The translations under genes were made by a program, and so were the position numbers. DNA of 42,699 nucleotides. It comes from a virus (taxonomy: Duplodnaviria > Heunggongvirae > Uroviricota > Caudoviricetes). Positions 1,082-42,699 of this stretch are shown here, piece by piece; position 1 is the stretch's first letter, and the number at the start of each line of letters is the position of its first letter. Under the pieces are notes generated by a model. The model had not been told where the DNA came from. It ran no database searches and was given only the letters and a program-made list of their open reading frames with translations. The stretch lies in IMG/VR virus record IMGVR_UViG_2870490042_000003. One strand, written 5' to 3'.

Positions 1082-1408
1082 ATGACTAAAAATACTCGTT
1101 TTTCCCCCGAAGTCCGTCAACGGGCAGTCCGTATGGTTCTGGAAAGTCAGAGCGAATATGACTCACAATGGGCGACAATTTGTTCCATTGCTCCAAAGAT
1201 TGGCTGTACGCCGGAGACTCTGCGTGTCTGGGTTCGCCAGCATGAGCGGGATACCGGGGGCGGTGATGGAGGGCTCACCACCGCTGAACGTCAGCGTCTG
1301 AAAGAGCTGGAACGTGAAAATCGTGAACTGCGCCGCAGTAACGATATCCTTCGCCAGGCTTCCGCTTATTTTGCGAAGGCGGAGTTCGACCGCCTCTGGA
1401 AAAAATGA
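1082..1408 (+). CDS. IS629 transposase OrfA
   Basis: ATG at 1082 preceded by GAGAAAGAGG; 108 aa; ends in an A6 run (1400-1405, TGGAAAAAATGATG), the likely -1 frameshift site giving OrfAB. Confidence 0.85.
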
Positions 1409-2295
1409 TGCCACTGCTGGATAAGCTGCGTGAGCAGTACGGGGTCGGACCGCTATGCAGCGAACTGCATATTGCCCCGTCAACGTATTACCACTGTCAG
1501 CAACAGCGACATCATCCGGATAAACGCAGTGCCCGTGCGCAGCGCGATGACTGGCTGAAGAAAGAGATACAGCGCGTATACGATGAAAATCACAAGGTAT
1601 ACGGTGTGCGTAAAGTCTGGCGTCAGTTGTTACGGGAAGGTATCAGAGTGGCCAGATGCACTGTGGCACGTCTCATGGCGGTTATGGGACTTGCCGGTGT
1701 TCTCCGGGGTAAAAAGGTCCGTACGACCATCAGCCGGAAAGCCGTTGCCGCAGGCGACCGCGTAAACCGTCAGTTCGTGGCAGAACGACCTGACCAGCTG
1801 TGGGTGGCTGATTTTACTTACGTCAGCACATGGCGGGGCTTCGTCTATGTGGCGTTCATCATTGATGTGTTTGCCGGATACATCGTGGGGTGGCGGGTCT
1901 CATCGTCCATGGAAACGACATTCGTGCTGGATGCACTGGAGCAGGCGTTATGGGCCCGTCGACCGTCCGGCACGGTCCATCACAGTGATAAAGGTTCTCA
2001 GTATGTATCGCTGGCCTACACACAGCGGCTTAAGGAAGCCGGATTACTGGCATCAACAGGAAGTACAGGCGACTCGTATGACAACGCGATGGCGGAGAGC
2101 ATCAATGGTCTTTACAAAGCGGAGGTAATACACCGTAAGAGCTGGAAAAACCGTGCAGAAGTGGAACTGGCCACACTCACGTGGGTGGACTGGTATAACA
2201 ATCGACGATTGCTGGAAAGGCTGGGCCATACTCCTCCGGCAGAAGCAGAAAAAGCTTATTATGCTTCCATCGGAAACGATGATCTGGCAGCCTGA
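1405..2295 (+). CDS. IS629 transposase OrfB (DDE integrase-type catalytic domain)
   Basis: 296-aa ORF in -1 frame relative to orfA; IS3-family transposase-like sequence. Confidence 0.85.
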
Positions 2296-27977: not shown

Positions 27978-28012
27978 GGAGTTTACTCACATCTGACAAA
28001 ATCAATATAAAC

Positions 28013-28216
28013 AGCCCCTCCGGAGAGGGGCTGGAGAGTGGCGCTATGTGCCATTGCATGGTGCCGGGTGCCTCCCGGTGAATTCAGTACCAGCACCTGA
28101 ATCCGCGATTATCCCATATACCTACTCGCTGATTACCCCTCCGCACAGGGGGATTCACCATGCGAAATTTTTTAACAAACTTCCCGCCGGCCAGACAATA
28201 ATCGCCAGCCTGAATT
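28013..28216. repeat. Copy 1 of a diverged ~205-bp direct repeat beginning with GC-rich hairpin AGCCCCTCCGGAGAGGGGCT
   Basis: Shared blocks with copy 2: AGCCCCTCCGGAGAGGGGCTG, CATGGTGCC..GCCTCCCGGT.AATTCAG, GGGGGATTCACCATGCGA, TTTTTAACAAA, GCCAGACAAT.ATC. Confidence 0.7.
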
Positions 28217-28475
28217 ATGAGCAACGTGGCATTTTACGGGAAAACTGTTTTCTGCAGTAAAAAGGCCCGCCGGAGCGAGCCTGGAAGGATAGCGGTCATG
28301 TGATGCCGGTTTCCCGGTAACTCAGCATCGGTATCTGAGTCAACGTTTTCTCTACTGGGTCATTTCCGATACGTTCCGCCTTCCGGCAGACTTTCATCAC
28401 GTCAGAAAATATAGCACCCTGAGTAACAGGACAGTACTCAGAATTCAGGAAACTGTGACACATCCTGCACAGAAA

Positions 28476-28685
28476 AGCCCCTCCGGAGAGGGGCTGAAGT
28501 ATAGCCTAATTTCTGTCTGTCGCATGGTGCCAGGGGCCTCCCGGTAAATTCAGCCTGTCTACTGAATTTGCATGTTCTCTGGATCATACACTTTGCCAGA
28601 TGCCCCGCCGCTGAGGGGGATTCACCATGCGATGTAATTTTTAACAAATTCTCCGGCAGCCAGACAATCATCAAGCTGTGGAATT
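28476..28685. repeat. Copy 2 of the diverged ~205-bp direct repeat
   Basis: Same conserved blocks as copy 1; the hairpin read on the - strand is followed by TTTTCTGTG. Confidence 0.7.
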
Positions 28686-29010: not shown

Positions 29011-29086
29011 TGGTGGCCCTTGCTGGATTTGAACCAGCGACCTGGCGATTATGAGTCGCTCGCTCTCACCACTGAGCTAAAGGGCC
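29011..29086 (-). tRNA. tRNA with CAU anticodon (tRNA-Ile2 ileX/ileZ-like, or Met), encoded CCA
   Basis: 76 nt folded by hand into a canonical cloverleaf: acceptor GGCCCTT/AAGGGCC, D-stem GCTC/GAGC, anticodon loop CT-CAT-AA, T-stem GCTGG/CCAGC, T-loop TTCAAAT, discriminator A, CCA. Confidence 0.85.
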
Positions 29087-31934: not shown

Positions 31935-32090
31935 TTACTCCTCAGGTTCGTAAGCTGTGAAGACAGCGACCTCCGTCTGGCCGGTTCGGATTCGTACCTC
32001 GCAGAGGTCTTTCCTCGTTACCAGTGCCGTCACAATGACGGTTAAACAGATGACGATCAGGGCGATTAACATCGCCTTTTGCTGCTTCAT
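31935..32090 (-). CDS. hok: Hok/Gef-family type I toxin (HokD/RelF-like)
   Basis: 51 aa MKQQKAMLIALIVICLTVIVTALVTRKDLCEVRIRTGQTEVAVFTAYEPEE; an in-frame upstream ATG at 32147 would give a 70-aa form. Confidence 0.85.
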   Translation of the reverse strand: MKQQKAMLIALIVICLTVIVTALVTRKDLCEVRIRTGQTEVAVFTAYEPEE

Positions 32091-32349
32091 AGCCTGCTTC
32101 TCCTTGCCTTTCGGCACGTAAGAGGCTAACCTAGATTTGCCGTTCATAGATTGAGCCTCAGATTAATGTTAAGCGTCTTGCAGGACGCGTAATGTTAACT
32201 GGGGCTTTTCTCTATCTGCCTTTTGGTGTTCATGCCTGAGACAGATAGCCTCAAGCACCCGCAGTCATTCTACTTAACTAAGATTTCCCCGCAAACCGTT
32301 TTTGTCCGGCACAGTAAATATCCAACTAAACCAATGGCGTTCGCTGTAT

Positions 32350-35902: not shown

Positions 35903-36128
35903 GAATCCCCCCTTGGTTAGAAGGCGGATTATGATCAGAACCGGGAATGACAACCGTCGGTATGTGTAACTCATATTTGAGCGCCCCGGCAGTGACTGCC
36001 TGAATTAGCAACGCCCATTTCCACGGAACCTCTTCCCCCCACATGCTGACTGTGGTTTTTGACGTTCCTAGAGCTGCGGCTGTTTTAACAACTCCGCCAA
36101 AATAGCCTAATACTTCTGATTTTTTCAT
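35886..36128 (-). CDS. Cro-type HTH regulator (YdaS-like)
   Basis: About 80 aa from ATG 36128 (GGAG SD); divergent from the CI-like repressor gene. Confidence 0.6.
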   Translation of the reverse strand: MKKSEVLGYFGGVVKTAAALGTSKTTVSMWGEEVPWKWALLIQAVTAGALKYELHIPTVVIPGSDHNPPSNQGGIHENQA

Positions 36129-36140
36129 GAGTCGCTCCAT

Positions 36141-36222
36141 AAAACTGAACGTCAAAAGTTTAATAATCAAAACCAAAGAAAGTCAAGAAACAAAACCATC
36201 TGTGTTTTAAAATCAAAACATG
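36141..36222. promoter_or_regulatory. Immunity control region between the Cro-like and CI-like genes: operator palindrome TGTTTT-N6-AAAACA (36203-36220) and candidate divergent promoters
   Basis: 18-bp palindrome abuts the cI ATG; TAAAAT hexamer 6 nt upstream of the cI ATG with no SD; AAAAC/GTTTT half-site repeats; - strand TTGACT…ATTAAA upstream of the cro-like gene. Confidence 0.5.
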
Positions 36223-36858
36223 AGCAAGCAAACTATATCTGAACGCATAACCCAACGTATGCATGCGCTAAACCTGAAAGGCAAAGACCTTGTCAATGGC
36301 ACTGGCGCATCAAAAGGCTCCGTAAGTCAATGGATGAACGGTGGAGGAGCGCCGTCCTCGCGTTACATAAGTTCACTGGCAAAAATATTGAAAGTAAACG
36401 AAAATTGGCTTCTTAATGGAGGAGAGTTAAATACAGGTGATTCGCTTGATCTATCTTTACCGCCGATAAAAACGGTTCCGCTACTATCACTTCAGCAGGC
36501 AGCAAGCTGGAGTGATTATATGAAAAATTCCTCAATAACCTCTTGTGTGCAGCTTGTCGGAGAAATCCCGGTCAATACCTTTGCAGTTGTTCTAGAGAGT
36601 GACAGTATGTCAACATCTGGTGGGGGAGTTTCCATCCCAAATGGTTCAACAGTTTTTGTTGATCCCGATCGAACCGTACAACCAGGAAATATTGTCCTTG
36701 CCTTACCCAAAGGGACCACAACACCTGTCATTCGTAAACTGGAGATAGAAGGGCCGGATATTCTTTTAGTCCCCACGAATCCTCGCTACCCTTCAATTAT
36801 GCTGGATGATCTATCTTGCATATTGGGCGTATGCTTTAAAATTCAACAAGATATTTAA
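36220..36858 (+). CDS. CI-like repressor (N-terminal HTH, C-terminal S24 LexA-type autopeptidase)
   Basis: 212 aa; HTH region …GKDLVNGTGASKGSVSQWMNG…; Ser (SDSM) and Lys (VIRKL) dyad candidates in the C-terminal half. Confidence 0.8.
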   Translation: MSKQTISERITQRMHALNLKGKDLVNGTGASKGSVSQWMNGGGAPSSRYISSLAKILKVNENWLLNGGELNTGDSLDLSLPPIKTVPLLSLQQAASWSDYMKNSSITSCVQLVGEIPVNTFAVVLESDSMSTSGGGVSIPNGSTVFVDPDRTVQPGNIVLALPKGTTTPVIRKLEIEGPDILLVPTNPRYPSIMLDDLSCILGVCFKIQQDI

Positions 36859-37582: not shown

Positions 37583-37801
37583 ATGCAGAAACGAGAACCC
37601 GTCATCATCGCGCCAGACTATACCGATGATGAACTTTATGAGTGGATGCGCCAGAAAATTAATGCAGCGCAGGATTTGAAATGGGCCAATGAAGCCAGGG
37701 CTAAGCAGGCTGAAAATCTGTCCGCTCTGGAGCAGGATATCACCAGGCTGGAAAAAGCAGCGGCATTAAGCATTGCCAGAATGATTACATACCCGCGTTA
37801 A
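37583..37801 (+). CDS. Hypothetical early-left protein (72 aa)
   Basis: ATG 37583 with GGAG 6 nt upstream; predicted helical; no family recognised. Confidence 0.55.
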   Translation: MQKREPVIIAPDYTDDELYEWMRQKINAAQDLKWANEARAKQAENLSALEQDITRLEKAAALSIARMITYPR

Positions 37802-38208
37802 TAGATAACCAACGAAGCTAAGGTTGGTAATTAAGGAGTTCTCCACGGGTGAGGTGGAGTGCGTGCGCCGGACACGGGTGAGCATCCGGCACTGACAGTT
37901 TACTGAAAGGATATTTCCCTGAAAAGTCAGACCATAACGCGAAAGCGCACGGCGAGGTAGCTGGTTCATAGATAGCCTGTCGTTAAATTTTCGTCGACCG
38001 TGCGCTTCCGGTTGTGGCAATCCGCGAAATGGCGCGGCGGTAAGTATGGCGGGGTTATTCCTTCCCCCGTTGAGGACACCGGGTTGTCAGGTTGACCATA
38101 CGCTTAAGTGACAACCCCACTGCAACGCCCTCTGTTATCAATTTTCTGGTGACGTTTGGCGGTATCAGTTTTACTCCGTGACTGCTCTGCCGCCCTTTTT
38201 AAAGTGAA

Positions 38209-38369: not shown

Positions 38370-38558
38370 ATGAAAACGTTATTACCAAACGTTAATACGT
38401 CTGAAGGTTGTTTTGAAATTGGTGTCACTATCAGTAATCCTGTATTTACTGAAGATGCCATTAACAAAAGAAAACACGAACGGGAGTTATTAAATAAAGT
38501 ATGCATTGTTTCAATGCTGGCCCGTTTACGTCTGATGCCAAAAGGATGTGCACAATGA
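38370..38558 (+). CDS. KilR-like small protein (Rac-type cell-division inhibitor candidate)
   Basis: 62 aa from ATG 38370 (GAGGG SD); …NVNTSEGCFEIGVTISNPVFTEDAINKRKHERELLNKVCIVSMLARLRLMPKGCAQ; the KilR call is from memory and position. Confidence 0.45.
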   Translation: MKTLLPNVNTSEGCFEIGVTISNPVFTEDAINKRKHERELLNKVCIVSMLARLRLMPKGCAQ

Positions 38559-38746
38559 ATCCAGTATTTGCACTTATTCTGACGGTTTTTCTTGTTTCCG
38601 GAGAGCCAGTTGATATTGCAGTCAGTGTTCACAGAACAATGCAGGAATGTATGGCAGCAGCAACCGAACAGAAAATTCCAGGCAACTGTTATCCGGTCGA
38701 TAAAGTTATTCACCAGGATAATAACGAAATCCCGGCAGGATTTTAA
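38555..38746 (+). CDS. Small protein with hydrophobic N-terminus (63 aa), translationally coupled to the kilR-like gene
   Basis: ATGA start/stop overlap at 38555-38558; MNPVFALILTVFLVSGEPVDIAVSVHRTMQECMAAATEQ…. Confidence 0.5.
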   Translation: MNPVFALILTVFLVSGEPVDIAVSVHRTMQECMAAATEQKIPGNCYPVDKVIHQDNNEIPAGF

Positions 38747-38839
38747 AACAGCACCGTAATAAATATCCAGTTTCATTCTTATATGTCAGCAATGGCAGAG
38801 ATTTGTTCACCCTTAAATCTGTGATGAGGTTTACCAATA

Positions 38840-41281
38840 ATGAGCACTGATAAAGAAGAATTTGCACTATATTGCGAAGCAAAAAATGACAAAGTAAGAA
38901 AACGCCTAGGAATTAAAGGTGGTTTTTACTGGACTACAGCAAAAAAATTATCTGTTGCAATCTCCCGCTGCATTACCGCAATGGATGACAACGATTATGA
39001 TGAAGACGACTTTAAAAAACCCGTCCGCGTCAATTTGCCCGTTGTTGACGACCTTCCGCCAGAAGGCGTGTTTGATACTGAATTCTGCAACCGCTATGAA
39101 AAAGGCGGGAAAGATGGCATCACAATGACATTTATCGGCCCTTCCCCCTCTGTTCAGGACAAACCAGCCAGCACTGACAATACCAACATCAACGGCGAAG
39201 CCATGACTGAGATTGAGGAGAGCATGCTTCTGCCTGTCTCCGGTCAGGAACTGCCCATTCGTTGGCTTGCTCAACACGGCAGCGAAAAACCAGTAACGCA
39301 CGTTTCACGCGACGAACTCCAGGCATTACACATTGCACGGGCTGAAGAACTACCGGCTGTTACTGCCCTGGCTATTTCGCATAAAACCAGTCTGCTCGAC
39401 TCGCTGGAGATTCGCGACCTCCACAAACTGGTTCGTGACACTGACAAAGTTTTCCCTAATCCTGGTAATTCAGACCTGGGACTAATAACTGCTTTTTTCG
39501 AAGCATACCTAGACGCTGACTACACTGATCGGGGTCTGCTGACAAAAGAGTGGATGAAAGGAAATCGTGTTTCACGCATCACCCGCACGGCTTCCGGTGC
39601 TAATGCTGGCGGTGGGAACAAAACCGATCGCAATCCGAATTTAGTACACACCCTCGACACACTGGATGTGGAGATTGCAGCAGCCACACTTCCGATGGAT
39701 TTTAATATTTATGAAATTCCGGGCAGCGTTTATCGTCGCGCAAAAGAAGTAGTCCTGAACAAAGAAAGTCCGTTCAAAGAATGGTCCGCAGCACTTCGTG
39801 CAACCCCGGGTATTCTGGACTATTCCCGCGCCGCTATTTTTGCACTTATCCGAAGCGCACACCCTGAATTTTATCACTACCCGGGACGCCTTCAGGGGTA
39901 TATCAACGCCTATTTGACGGAAACTGATCACGAGAACCCCAGCAAGGAAACTCTCACAGCTGCCCGGCATACGCCGGAAAAAGATATCCTGGAAGAAATT
40001 AACCGCGAGGTGGTTACTGAGCGTGAAACAGAAGAAGAAAAACCACAACCATCTGACGCAATGGCAGGTGAACAGGCAACAACTGAAACAATGGAACCGG
40101 ATACAACTGAACATGGCCAGAACGCGCAGTCGCTGGATGCTCAGTCGCAGGTGAGTTCCGCTAACCAAGTAAAAGTCACCGCTGACGAAGTAAACAAAAT
40201 TATGCAGGCAGCCAATATCAGCCAGCCTGACGCCGATAAGTTACTTGCTGTATCGCGTGGTGAATTTGTTGAGGGGATTAGCGACCCTAATGATCCGAAA
40301 TGGGTCAAAGGGATCCAGACTCGCGATTCTGTGAACCAGAACCAGCATGAATCGGAACGGAACGACCAAAAAGCGGAACAAAACAGCCCAAATGCGTTAC
40401 AAAACGAGCCAGAAACGAAACAATCCGAACCAGTGGCGCAACAGGAAGTGGAAAAAGTCTGCACCGCCTGCGGTCAGACCGGCGGCGGCAACTGCCCTGA
40501 TTGTGGCGCGGTGATGGGCGACGCAACATACCAGGAAACATTCGATGAAGAGTATCAGGTTGAAGTTCAGGAAGATGATCCGGAGGAAATGGAAGGCGCT
40601 GAACATCCACACAAGGAGAACACTGGCGGCAATCAGCATCACGATAGCGATAATGAAACTGGCGAGACGGCAGATCACTCAATTAAGGTGAACGGTCATC
40701 AAGAAATCACATCCACCAGCAGGACGTGTGACCATCTAATGATCGACCTTGAAACCATGGGAAAAAATCCTGATGCCCCGATCATCTCAATAGGTGCAAT
40801 ATTTTTCGATCCGCAAACCGGAGATATGGGACCGGAATTTAGTAAGACTATCGATCTGGAAACTGCTGGCGGAGTCATTGATCGGGACACCATTAAATGG
40901 TGGCTTAAGCAATCACGCGAAGCGCAATCTGCCATTATGACCGATGAAATCCCGTTAGATGATGCACTGTTACAATTGCGGGAATTTATCGACGAAAACT
41001 CCGGTGAATTTTTTGTTCAGGTCTGGGGAAATGGAGCCAACTTCGACAACACGATTTTGCGCCGTTCATACGAACGGCAGGGGATCCCCTGCCCGTGGCG
41101 TTACTACAACGATCGCGATGTACGCACAATCGTTGAGCTGGGGAAAGCCATAGACTTCGATGCCAGAACGGCTATTCCATTCGAAGGTGAGCGCCATAAT
41201 GCACTTGATGACGCCCGTTACCAGGCAAAATACGTTTCAGTTATCTGGCAAAAACTGATCCCGAGTCAGGCTGATTTTTAA
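38840..41281 (+). CDS. RecE-like N-terminal/central region fused to a C-terminal DEDDh (DnaQ-like) 3'-5' exonuclease domain
   Basis: 813 aa; N-terminal two-thirds (…[30 protein letters not shown]…[19 protein letters not shown]…) resembles Rac RecE as I recall it; the C-terminal ~190 aa carry DEDDh-type motifs ([28 protein letters not shown]). Confidence 0.65.
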
Positions 41282-41342: not shown

Positions 41343-41612
41343 ATGAGCGAACAGTACCTGATAACGCTCGACGAGTGGAAACCAAAACGGTTCAGTCTCC
41401 CAATAACAAACACTACCCTGGTGAAATACGGAAAACTAGGATACATCGTTCCAAGGCCACAAAAAATTCGTGGGCGTTGGCTGATAGATCGCCGAGCAGT
41501 ATTTGTTGGGCCTGGTGAAACGGGAATTGCGCCGGAAATTCATACTGGCGATGATGATGCACTGAAGGAGATTTTAACTCATGTCACCGAGGCCACGAAA
41601 AAACAGCACTGA
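41343..41612 (+). CDS. xis: Excisionase (Xis-like)
   Basis: 89 aa from ATG 41343 (GGAG SD); small DNA-binding protein directly upstream of and overlapping int. Confidence 0.6.
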   Translation: MSEQYLITLDEWKPKRFSLPITNTTLVKYGKLGYIVPRPQKIRGRWLIDRRAVFVGPGETGIAPEIHTGDDDALKEILTHVTEATKKQH

Positions 41613-42699
41613 CGTAGCCGGTCTTTACGAAAAGTTTGATCGCAGAACTGGCAGAGTTTACTACCAGTATAAAAATCCTGTGACTGGAAAATTTCACGGA
41701 CTCGGAACAGACAAAGGTAAGGCAGAAAAAATCGCTTCCACAGCCAATCAGCGAATAGCTGCAGCAGAAGCTGAATATTTCATGCGCAAAATTGATGAAA
41801 GTCTGTCAGCAACAAAACGTCGGGGTATCAGATTAAAGGCATGGGTTGATCGATATCTGAAAATACAGGACACGCGACTGAAAAATGGAGATATTGCAGC
41901 TACAACTCACAAAGAAAAAACTCGAATGGCTGCATACCTGGTTTCCCGTCTGGGAAACCACCCATTGAAAGAACTGGAAGTAAGAGACTTTGCATTAATA
42001 CTGGATGAGTGGCTGGATAAAGACATGGTCAGCACAGCGAGAGTAAATCGTGGATTATGGGTTGATATTTATAAAGAAGCACAGCATGCAGGGGAAGTTC
42101 CTCCTGGATGGAATCCTCCGGAGGCTACCCGTAAACCGATCCCTAAAGTAACCAGAGCCAGGCTCACCATGGAAGACTGGCAAAAAATTTACAATGCAAC
42201 GCCTGAAAAACACTTTATCCGTAACGCAATGCTTCTTGCGATTGTTACTGGTCAGCGCCGTGATGACATTTGCCACATGCGTTTTTCAGATGTGTGGAAC
42301 GAACACTTGCATATCACCCAGGGAAAAACCGGAATGCGTCTGGCGTTACCGCTTACACTACGCTGTGATGCCATTGGGATAACGTTAAAAGAAGTTATTG
42401 ATGGGTGCCGAGACAGAATATTAAGTCCATATCTAATCCATAGTCGGCACCAGAAACAACCGAAGCCGATGAGTAAAGACAACCTGAGCGACTACTTTGC
42501 CAAAGCACGGGATCTGGCTGGGATAATTCCACCAGCAGGAAAAACTCCGCCAACATTTCATGAACAACGCTCTCTATCAGAACGGCTGTACCGTGCACAG
42601 GGTATCGATACAAAAACATTACTAGGACATAAAGTCCAGGCAACCACCGATCGCTATAACGATACTCGAGGTCAGGAATGGGTTAAGTTGGTTATTTGA
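41581..42699 (+). CDS. int: Integrase (tyrosine recombinase, lambda Int family), 3' end beyond the window
   Basis: N-terminal arm-binding-type domain; the ORF is open to the window end, so the catalytic C-terminus is not visible. Confidence 0.8.
   Translation: MSPRPRKNSTDVAGLYEKFDRRTGRVYYQYKNPVTGKFHGLGTDKGKAEKIASTANQRIAAAEAEYFMRKIDESLSATKRRGIRLKAWVDRYLKIQDTRLKNGDIAATTHKEKTRMAAYLVSRLGNHPLKELEVRDFALILDEWLDKDMVSTARVNRGLWVDIYKEAQHAGEVPPGWNPPEATRKPIPKVTRARLTMEDWQKIYNATPEKHFIRNAMLLAIVTGQRRDDICHMRFSDVWNEHLHITQGKTGMRLALPLTLRCDAIGITLKEVIDGCRDRILSPYLIHSRHQKQPKPMSKDNLSDYFAKARDLAGIIPPAGKTPPTFHEQRSLSERLYRAQGIDTKTLLGHKVQATTDRYNDTRGQEWVKLVI

Follow-up and report, generated by a model that had tools for sequence, protein, structure and literature searches.

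What does a RecE-like prophage protein do when its C-terminal domain is not that of RecE and no recT lies beside its gene? This question is raised by an open reading frame in a phage sequence of 42,699 nucleotides, the whole of which was analysed and is termed here the window. The original prediction, made from the letters alone, was of a RecE-like scaffold that carries a DEDDh exonuclease domain and has no RecT partner.

Organization of the gene and its operon

The reading frame has 813 codons and a stop at exactly the predicted limits, and coincides with the RefSeq CDS WP_000102136.1, whose product is given as 'exonuclease' (Table 1). A GAGG sequence is located ~12 nt 5' of the ATG. The gene is the last early-left member of the dicF-dicB-ydfD operon, and is followed by xis, as predicted, and then by int. 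This gene order suggests that the fusion gene would be expressed from the early-left operon; promoter- and terminator-like matches between positions 36000 and 42699 did not exceed the count in shuffled sequence, and are thus uninformative on transcription. At one of the loci used for comparison (L095), dicB lies upstream of a true recE-recT pair, such that recE also sits in the same kind of operon.

Table 1 Features of the fusion gene and its neighbourhood, in coordinates of the window
Feature	Position	Strand	Evidence
DicF sRNA, encoded 5' of the gene within the early-left operon	38144..38195	+	Rfam RF00039, 76.7 bits
dicB (38370-38558) and ydfD (38555-38746), immediately 5' of the gene	38370..38746	+	RefSeq annotation of identical locus
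Whole gene, 813 aa + stop: RecE-type N-terminal module and DEDDh 3'-5' exonuclease domain	38840..41281	+	ORF; RefSeq CDS at identical coordinates
Alpha/beta fold at the N-terminus of the RecE-type scaffold, aa 1-100	38840..39139	+	
Pfam PF06630 (Exonuc_VIII) match, aa 57-189	39008..39406	+	E 1.5e-35
Helical domains of the scaffold, aa 120-390	39197..40009	+	pLDDT >90
Acidic linker, predicted disordered, aa 394-631	40019..40732	+	pLDDT <50 over most; composition; dN/dS 0.35
CxxC-x7-CxxC, possible zinc ribbon, aa 541-555, also in Rac RecE	40460..40504	+	aligned with RecE CNACGQTGGDNCPDC
Final base of 94-95% DNA identity to true recE, marking the left breakpoint of the exchange (codon ~613)	40676	+	blastn
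DEDDh (DnaQ-fold) 3'-5' exonuclease domain, aa 632-806, catalytic D636, E638, D736, H786, D791	40733..41257	+	PF16473
xis (41343-41612) and int (41581-42699), directly 3' of the gene	41343..42699	+	ORFs; RefSeq; annealase tblastn

The N-terminal module corresponds to the non-catalytic part of RecE

The AlphaFold model of the fusion protein comprises three confidently folded domains within residues 1-390, followed by a linker of ~230 residues. BLASTP aligned residues 58-615 of the fusion with residues 50-591 of K-12 Rac RecE at 59% identity (558 aa, 613 bits, Expect 0.0), which together with the PF06630 match bears out the proposal that the N-terminal two-thirds resemble the non-catalytic part of RecE. 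The NCBIfam model of exodeoxyribonuclease VIII (NF007259) likewise matches only residues 1-615, corresponding to model positions 1-602 of 877, with a score of 944.4 bits against a curated equivalog cut-off of 1269 bits. No similarity to the PD-(D/E)XK nuclease domain of RecE (residues 606-866) was detected in the fusion, as the BLASTP alignment ends at RecE residue 591, and Pfam gave no DUF3799 or PDDEXK match in the protein.

Further comparison revealed a conserved core at residues ~200-392, which is common to RecE and every tail variant. A search of PDB and BFVD returned no structural homologue of the N-terminal module. Residues 1-393 evolve under purifying selection, with a dN/dS of 0.146 over 61 unique alleles. 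The four cysteines of the CxxC-x7-CxxC motif in the linker are kept in 59-61 of these 61 alleles, at a position where the confidence of the model is low.

The C-terminal domain has the predicted fold of a DEDDh exonuclease

The C-terminal domain matches Pfam PF16473 (Rv2179c-like) over residues 632-803, which covers positions 2-177 of the 177-position profile, with an E-value of 1.2e-67 and a score of 227.4 bits against a cut-off of 27. All five DEDDh residues are present, D636 and E638 in the motif MIDLET, D736 in NGANFD, and H786 and D791 in HNALDDA, and they align with D7, E9, D119, H186 and D191 of T4 DexA, respectively. The five residues are invariant across the 61 unique alleles, and the dN/dS of 0.115 for the domain indicates purifying selection. 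The AlphaFold model has a pLDDT of ~85-90 for residues 632-806. Structural similarity search of this C-terminal model against PDB using Foldseek gave matches at a probability of 1.0 that include 8h2f, DexA (8kel), RNase T and Orn. A Cas2-DnaQ domain, DexA and RNase T were the top hits; Orn and REXO2 also rank high, and RNase T and Orn are equally good matches. Domain and structure prediction thus agree with the original assignment of a DnaQ-fold exonuclease of the DEDDh type, and not of the PD-(D/E)XK type. As a DEDDh domain stands in place of the RecE nuclease, the predicted polarity is opposite to that of RecE.

Exchange of the nuclease at the linker and absence of an annealase gene

Alignment of the window against three true recE loci (L089, L091 and L095) by blastn showed that the homology spans positions 38813-40676 and then ends. 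At all seven loci with a K-12-type RecE nuclease, recT overlaps the stop codon. By contrast, tblastn with RecT, Bet, Erf and the type-3 tail (a possible Rad52-like protein, see below) found no homologue of any of these four in the 42.7-kb window, nor in the flanks of any of 75 scaffold+DEDDh loci, of which 70 have at least 1 kb of sequence downstream (median downstream flank, 1.6 kb). The claims that no annealase gene follows, and that the protein is not part of a classical two-component recombinase, are both upheld by these searches. Because recT always lies 3' of the K-12-type RecE and no annealase was found at the 75 fusion loci, the alignments show that, at the level of sequence, the PD-(D/E)XK 5'-3' nuclease domain and the downstream recT have together been replaced by the DEDDh domain at the interdomain linker. 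The C-terminal domain of RecE, which is missing from the fusion, is reportedly the part that binds RecT.

A protein homologue search yielded near-identical E. coli sequences only, and was replaced by a representative-library search; a scan of genome contigs gave only 12 loci. Two other candidates in K-12 proved unrelated to the fusion gene: the Qin pseudogene ydfE, which occupies the same operon position, has no homology to it by BLASTP, and the DLP12 pseudogene exoD has none as a C-terminal fragment of it. The type-3 tail had been suspected to be a Rad52-like annealase, but it has no profile match in PDB and its matches to Pfam Rad52_Rad22 are sub-threshold (E-values of 0.0064 and 0.12). PHROGs labels this tail 'exonuclease', and its phage homologues are inconsistently annotated.

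Prevalence and annotation

The original prediction implied that the architecture is rare, which turned out to be wrong. Of 5426 complete E. coli genomes, 4019 (~74%) carry the fusion junction, compared to 1736 with true recE. The gene is often multi-copy, with several copies per pathogenic strain, and the identical 813-residue protein occurs on at least 1000 public contigs. RefSeq labels the fusion "exonuclease" or "3'-5' exonuclease", and literature searches found no paper describing a fusion of the RecE scaffold with a DEDDh domain. The protein is already labelled as an exonuclease in the databases, but is not known to have been studied as a RecE-scaffold/DEDDh chimera.

Comparison with known exonucleases

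The fusion and K-12 Rac RecE are homologous over their N-terminal ~600 residues, including the acidic linker and its CxxC-x7-CxxC motif; they share the same place in a prophage early-left operon, and the gene is 94-95% identical in DNA to other recE alleles. They differ in that the fusion lacks the PD-(D/E)XK 5'-3' domain and an adjacent recT, possesses a DEDDh domain and falls below the NF007259 cut-off.

For the C-terminal domain, the nearest characterised relatives are EcD and T4 DexA, both DEDDh enzymes. EcD is an E. coli homologue of DexA (Kang et al. 2025, PMC12153337; GenBank HAK9828821.1). In vitro at 25 C it digested T4 DNA and left unmodified dsDNA undigested, and a plasmid-borne copy protected E. 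coli from T4 (PMC12153337). We located an EcD-like ORF of 189 residues (L122:5679-6248, minus strand) by the published forward primer, with a MIDTET start; its end corresponds to the reverse primer bar one base, and A78 is present. It is 39% identical to residues 634-806 of the fusion (E-value of 2e-38). EcD-like ORFs also occur on viral (IMG/VR) contigs. In contrast to the fusion, EcD is a stand-alone protein of 189 residues with Ala78 where the fusion has D708, and Trp where it has Y756; EcD is also the one that has been characterised by experiment. The column of DexA D90, assigned to the tetramer and occupied by A78 in EcD, carries Asp in 61 of 61 alleles, which is not the HREX residue. That of DexA W152, assigned to recognition of 5hmC, carries Y, C, H, T or N among the 61 alleles and thus also departs from HREX, as far as the alignment tells. 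At the column of DexA D169 the fusion has Ala, with an Asp two residues on, in an ambiguous loop where EcD itself is not cleanly aligned. Against the defence models of PADLOC-DB 2.0, the 813-residue protein matched no family, and the EcD-like ORF gave a weak generic match to a Cas-associated DEDDh family only.

T4 DexA (exonuclease A; PDB 8KEL/8KEN) is the sole solved structure found by sequence (PDB, E-value of 1.8e-6). It shares with the fusion domain the DEDDh motifs and the fold, with a target-normalised TM score of 0.6-0.67; however, the identity is only ~28%, and DexA is a stand-alone enzyme of a virulent phage, with additional loops and an extended C-terminus. More similar in sequence are two DEDDh exonucleases of the E. 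coli temperate phages PhiR55_1 (XSB43120) and PhiR46_1 (XSB42754), which are 60% and 53% identical to the C-terminal domain, respectively (MAFFT). Their motifs are all conserved, and they are encoded by early-region accessory genes with no annotated annealase in the stretches examined, but they are proteins of 190-199 residues that lack the RecE scaffold. Both are mis-annotated as 'exodeoxyribonuclease VIII'. The founder of PF16473, Rv2179c of M. tuberculosis, is reportedly a small chromosomal exoribonuclease, and the fusion belongs to its family by the profile match (E-value of 1.2e-67).

Proposed function and alternative readings

The fusion is a chimeric member of the RecE family, and we propose that it probably acts, though with considerable room for doubt, as a single-component 3'-5' exonuclease on 3'-ended DNA, and not as a recombinase. 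The protein would be made upon derepression of the prophage early-left dicF-dicB-ydfD operon, and would remove nucleotides from free 3' ends in a Mg2+-dependent, 3'-to-5' manner. Its substrate is most probably DNA, in the form of single strands or 3' tails: the characterised enzymes nearest to it in sequence, DexA and EcD, degrade DNA, and the scaffold is otherwise found on a DNA recombination nuclease. The flexible linker might tether the exonuclease to whatever the RecE N-terminal module binds. The enzyme would act by itself and not as one half of an exonuclease/annealase recombinase, and its likely effect in the cell would be that 3'-ended DNA is trimmed or destroyed. Such an activity might serve phage DNA metabolism or scavenging, the case of T4 DexA, or might interfere with competing phages, which is what EcD is reported to do. 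The anti-defence role that had also been put forward gained no support from our analysis.

The identity of 39% to the EcD-like ORF, together with the digestion of T4 DNA by EcD and the protection that it confers from a plasmid, could be taken to indicate that the prophage carries a defence enzyme, an exonuclease of the EcD ('HREX') type, which would digest the hydroxymethylcytosine DNA of superinfecting T-even phages and protect the lysogen. The gene is indeed prophage-borne, very widespread and often multi-copy, and DicB, encoded in the same operon, is said to be an anti-phage factor when expressed. The defining residues of HREX differ, however, with D708 invariant and the W152 column variable; moreover, EcD is a stand-alone protein, the fusion has no match in PADLOC, and the early-left operon is expected to be repressed in a lysogen, which together make this role rather unlikely. 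RNA is a possible substrate, since PF16473 takes its name from an exoribonuclease and the structure model fits RNase T and Orn equally well. The enzyme would then trim or degrade the 3' ends of RNA, such as operon transcripts, sRNAs like DicF, which is encoded in the same operon, or the genomes of RNA phages. The strength of the PF16473 match and the presence of REXO2 among the top structural matches are in line with this, and a preprint (PMC13344964) describes bacterial DEDDh exonucleases (ISG20-like) that possess auxiliary domains, are often encoded on mobile elements and provide defence against RNA phages. Those enzymes were chosen as ISG20 homologues of <500 aa, however, and any relationship to the family of the fusion is hypothetical. 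Since DexA, the one sequence match in PDB, and EcD, the closest E. coli homologue with a characterised activity, both act on DNA, and a DNA recombination enzyme has the same scaffold, an RNA exonuclease appears distinctly unlikely.

The location of the gene, at the place where operons of this kind can carry recE (dicB and then recE-recT in L095), could also be explained if the protein were still a recombination exonuclease that is served by an annealase in trans, for example Rac RecT or the annealase of another prophage. The N-terminal region of RecE enhances linear-linear recombination (review PMC11611040), and T4 DexA influences double-strand-break repair in intron homing (PMC12153337). Yet the fusion lacks the PD-(D/E)XK domain, the 3' tails on which annealases of the RecT/Redbeta type depend are just what a 3'-5' exonuclease removes, an annealase was found at none of the 75 loci, and only 1736 of the 5426 genomes have true recE compared to 4019 with the fusion; we consider this very improbable. 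That the gene is a functionless, decaying remnant of recE is hardly credible at all: it resides in prophages, many of them defective, and there are truncated and frameshifted relatives (L011 and L090), but the 61 unique alleles with an intact ORF, the dN/dS of 0.12-0.15 in the folded parts, the invariant catalytic residues and the spread of one identical protein over at least 1000 contigs all speak against it, and the selection analysis contradicts decay.

Implications for RecE-annotated prophage proteins

A more far-reaching view, which we regard as unlikely, is that the ~390-residue folded RecE N-terminal module is a portable targeting platform, and that its DEDDh version is a weapon in phage competition or counter-defence rather than a recombinase. 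Lambdoid prophages would then recombine interchangeable effectors onto the module at the linker, namely a 5'-3' nuclease together with RecT, a DEDDh nuclease of 3'-5' polarity, what may be a Rad52-like annealase, and a fourth domain. The DEDDh version would bring an exonuclease that destroys 3' ends to DNA termini or to intermediates of replication or recombination, and might, for example, block the recombination-dependent replication of superinfecting phages or degrade retron msDNA; RecE itself is a trigger of retron-Sen2/Eco9.

Altogether, the E. coli prophage proteins named 'exodeoxyribonuclease VIII' or 'RecE' are a mixed group, the commonest form of which is not RecE. As this form has the opposite predicted polarity and lacks an annealase, the name should not be taken as a guide to the capacity for recombination. 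Natural and repeated swaps of the C-terminus on a conserved folded module provide an experimental handle on the long-standing question of what the RecE N-terminus does. The PF16473 family has recently been claimed for anti-T4 defence and roughly three in four E. coli genomes carry the gene; the role of the fusion therefore merits testing.

Domain architecture and predicted structure of the exonuclease

The gene, which is identical at protein level in at least 1000 public contigs, encodes a protein of two distinct halves (see table). The match to the NCBIfam equivalog for exodeoxyribonuclease VIII is confined to residues 1–615 (model positions 1–602 of 877), with a score of 944 bits under the 1269-bit cut-off. 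Direct BLASTP against RecE of the K-12 Rac prophage aligned residues 58–615 with RecE residues 50–591 at 59% identity, and the RecE nuclease domain did not align with the window protein. The C-terminal half covers the full PF16473 profile and possesses the five DEDDh residues: D636 and E638 in MIDLET, D736 in NGANFD, and H786 and D791 in HNALDDA.

The full protein was modelled with AlphaFold from a 58-sequence alignment; the model comprises three confident N-terminal domains (pLDDT >90), an α/β domain (residues 1–100) and two helical domains (residues 120–250 and 260–390), followed by an acidic, disordered stretch (residues 394–625) and a well predicted C-terminal domain (residues 632–806). 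Structural similarity search of the PDB using Foldseek retrieved DnaQ-fold DEDDh exonucleases only, all on the C-terminal domain, including the Cas2-DnaQ domain (8h2f), T4 DexA (8kel), RNase T and Orn/REXO2. As the domain, alignment and motif results agree with statistics far beyond chance, the original prediction of a RecE-like N-terminal part joined to a DEDDh domain, rather than to a RecE nuclease, is confirmed in all parts of its observation, and its structural interpretation holds.

Features of the window and domains of the exonuclease
Feature	Position	Strand	Remark
ALIL pseudoknot	1363-1479	+	Rfam RF01497, 120 bits
STnc100 sRNA, two tandem copies	28003-28191; 28467-28660	-; -	132 and 138 bits
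tRNA	29014-29086	-	
sok antitoxin RNA	32085-32260	-	112 bits
cI-like repressor ORF	36220-36858	+	212 aa
ydfC	37583-37801		early-left operon, first in listed order
DicF sRNA	38144-38195	+	intact; Rfam, 76.7 bits
dicB	38370-38558	+	after DicF
ydfD	38555-38746	+	directly before exonuclease gene
Exonuclease gene	38840-41281	+	813 codons; RefSeq WP_000102136.1 'exonuclease', exact same ORF in identical E. coli loci
PF06630 (Exonuc_VIII)	aa 57-189		Pfam, E 1.5e-35
PF16473 (Rv2179c-like 3'-5' exoribonuclease domain)	aa 632-803		Pfam, E 1.2e-67
xis	41343-41612	+	directly after exonuclease gene
int	41581-42699	+	after xis

Selection on both modules

The retrieved loci yielded 61 unique full-length alleles, in which the five catalytic residues are invariant (61/61); the four cysteines that form a CxxC-x7-CxxC motif (residues 541–555), which RecE shares, are kept in 59–61. 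The median pairwise dN/dS is lowest for the DEDDh domain (0.115), followed by residues 1–393 (0.146) and the linker (0.347). These low values and invariant residues indicate that both folded modules are intact and under purifying selection, and that the gene is not a relic.

Genomic context and absence of an annealase

The window corresponds to a lambdoid prophage of E. coli that is integrated beside potC, and its early-left operon ends with the exonuclease gene, after which come xis and int. With DicF, dicB and ydfD, this prophage has a full operon of the dicBF type, as does K-12 Qin; ydfE, the K-12 pseudogene at the corresponding place, bears no relation to the exonuclease gene. As originally predicted, xis comes next and an annealase is missing: tblastn over the entire 42.7 kb found no homologue of RecT, Redβ, Erf, Gam, Abc2 or the possibly Rad52-like type 3 tail described below, and RefSeq annotates none of them in the prophage, only RusA. 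Likewise, homologues of RecT, Bet, Erf and the type 3 tail are absent from 75/75 loci with the scaffold and DEDDh domain within their available flanks (median 8 kb upstream; at least 1 kb downstream, the expected place of recT, in 70 of the 75), which makes the DEDDh form consistently a single-gene module. dicB lies just 5' of the gene in most of these loci. RecT is present in all seven loci with a K-12-type nuclease.

Other variants occupy related loci. L098 (8001–12229) and L017 (7914–12145) encode RecE variants of ~1040 residues, with scaffolds at 91% and 35% identity to the window protein, respectively, and divergent nuclease domains (27–30% identity to K-12). Each is followed by an ORF of 367–372 residues that tblastn with K-12 RecT did not detect, presumably a different, divergent annealase. 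L011 and L012 (8001–12100) carry, at the locus of the window gene, a further form of the recombination module, in which a truncated scaffold ORF (474 residues) precedes a Gam-like gene (81% identity to lambda Gam) and a 365-residue ORF whose start, judged by eye only, resembles a RecA/Sak4-type ATPase; IS genes lie further downstream.

Elsewhere in the window, the tandem STnc100 copies sit in the late-gene regulatory region near the tRNA, and the sok RNA adjoins hokD, forming a hok/sok toxin-antitoxin locus within the prophage. ALIL pseudoknots serve as frameshift signals in transposases of the IS3 family, which places an IS element close to the window start. The cI-like ORF combines an N-terminal HTH-like region with an S24/LexA-type C-terminus; RefSeq has only its C-terminal 112 residues in the identical locus of NZ_CP023834 ('LexA family protein'), and a 199-residue cI is annotated in a phage record.

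Cassette exchange at the linker

The true recE genes of three IMG/VR loci (L089, L091 and L095) share 94–95% DNA identity with the window gene from just 5' of the start codon to nt 40676 (codon ~613), where the identity stops abruptly. Past this breakpoint, the three loci continue with a K-12-type PD-(D/E)XK nuclease domain and a recT overlapping its stop codon, whereas the window continues with the DEDDh domain and xis. Therefore, a cassette of nuclease domain and recT has been swapped for the DEDDh domain at the disordered linker. The two modules have independent histories in other loci too; for example, compared to the window, L079 has 69% identity in the scaffold and 99% in the DEDDh domain, and L072 84% and 80%, respectively.

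A phmmer search with residues 1–615 against 1.84 billion representative proteins yielded 267 clusters, and the part following the scaffold core (tail) was typed in the 80 representatives of at least 450 residues. These carry a RecE-type nuclease (22), a DEDDh domain (15), RecT (1), other tails (25) or only a short tail (17), some of the last being perhaps truncated. The single RecT fusion, P0124 (703 residues), joins a RecE scaffold (residues 50–527) in frame to a RecT domain (residues 528–678), and probably arose by a deletion removing the nuclease domain. The 25 other tails, which have no Pfam domain above threshold and all link into one phmmer cluster, fall by inspection into two motif classes, both on relatives of window residues 200–392. 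Type 3 (KKSLTDAxKKALSxLGFxADIxLGLYD; P0201, P0204, P0228, P0181, P0268, P0130 and P0199) is matched by stand-alone homologues from phages of Pectobacterium, Pseudomonas and Vibrio, and its sub-threshold matches to Pfam Rad52_Rad22 (E 0.0064 and 0.12) suggest that it may be an annealase fused straight to the scaffold. Type 4 (QQLTxAALQGLCANPA; P0219, P0224, P0236, P0193 and P0259) also occurs between core and nuclease in a RecE of ~1000 residues (P0214). A tree of the conserved core (residues 200–392) intermingles the tail types: only 23 of 54 entries have a nearest neighbour with the same tail, and different tails are found on cores at 81–91% identity. The linker has therefore been a site of repeated module exchange.

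Prevalence and annotation

Among 5426 complete E. coli genomes, DNA of the DEDDh domain is found in 4068 (8110 places, up to seven per genome) and the scaffold/DEDDh junction (nt 40480–40900, at least 80% covered) in 4019, compared to only 1736 with DNA of the K-12 RecE nuclease domain; recT lies under the latter match in 10/10 among the matches listed. The fusion is not rare; among the 'RecE-like' proteins of E. coli prophages it predominates. Nor is it unannotated, as RefSeq labels it an exonuclease: PGAP uses 'exonuclease', '3'-5' exonuclease' and '3'-5' exoribonuclease domain-containing protein', while 'exodeoxyribonuclease VIII' is frequent in phage records and PHROGs families covering the gene are labelled 'exonuclease', so that the architecture is implicit in public databases. 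In the literature searched, no paper described it, and three points were absent there: that the protein is a RecE scaffold whose nuclease has been exchanged and whose annealase has been lost, how frequent it is compared with true RecE, and that the scaffold is modular. The gene is also found at 95% identity, with dicB upstream, in L007 (GenBank JAGZPX010000007.1), a contig labelled as a Veillonella parvula metagenome-assembled genome and most likely a binning contaminant.

Relationship to DexA and possible roles

The CHARACTERISED relatives nearest to the C-terminal domain are DexA of phage T4 and its E. coli homologue EcD, T4 DexA (8KEL/8KEN) being the sole solved structure reached by sequence search (E 1.8e-6). 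The stand-alone homologues (190–199 residues) of other E. coli temperate phages share 60% and 53% identity in a MAFFT alignment and sit in early regions, with no annealase gene annotated in the stretches examined. EcD is reported to digest T4 (5hmC) DNA, to leave unmodified dsDNA undigested at 25 °C and, when plasmid-borne, to protect cells against T4, a defence named 'HREX' (PMC12153337). Using the published forward cloning primer (supplement of PMC12153337), we located on IMG/VR contigs an EcD-like ORF of 189 residues that starts with MIDTET, has Ala78 as in that report, and whose end fits the published reverse primer, one extra base aside; it is 39% identical to window residues 634–806 (E 2e-38). 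The defence form of EcD has A78 at the column of DexA D90, whereas the window protein has an invariant Asp (D708); the defence-defining column of DexA W152 (PMC12153337) holds a Tyr that varies among alleles, and the alignment is unreliable at D169. By residue comparison, the defence-form features thus appear not to be present in the window protein. No PADLOC model matched it, and the anti-defence role raised in the original prediction is unsupported.

Family knowledge predicts a Mg2+-dependent 3'-5' exonuclease acting on free 3' ends. With less certainty, its substrate would be DNA rather than RNA, because the closest relatives with known activity are DNases and the partners of the scaffold act on DNA; RNA is the substrate of Rv2179c, the founder of PF16473, and of RNase T, a structural neighbour. 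Also with less certainty, the enzyme would be expressed with the early-left operon upon derepression, and the flexible linker would tether it to whatever the RecE N-terminal module recognizes. The protein may take part in DNA-end processing or scavenging while the phage grows lytically, interfere with phage competitors, or have a function directed at RNA. As RecE degrades the msDNA of retrons and triggers their toxin systems (bioRxiv 10.1101/2020.06.22.160242), an interplay of this exonuclease with retron systems is conceivable. In terms of polarity, 3'-5' degradation would strip the very 3' tails that RecT-type annealases use; the window protein is therefore most likely a different, single-component enzyme at the recE locus rather than a RecE recombinase with reversed polarity.
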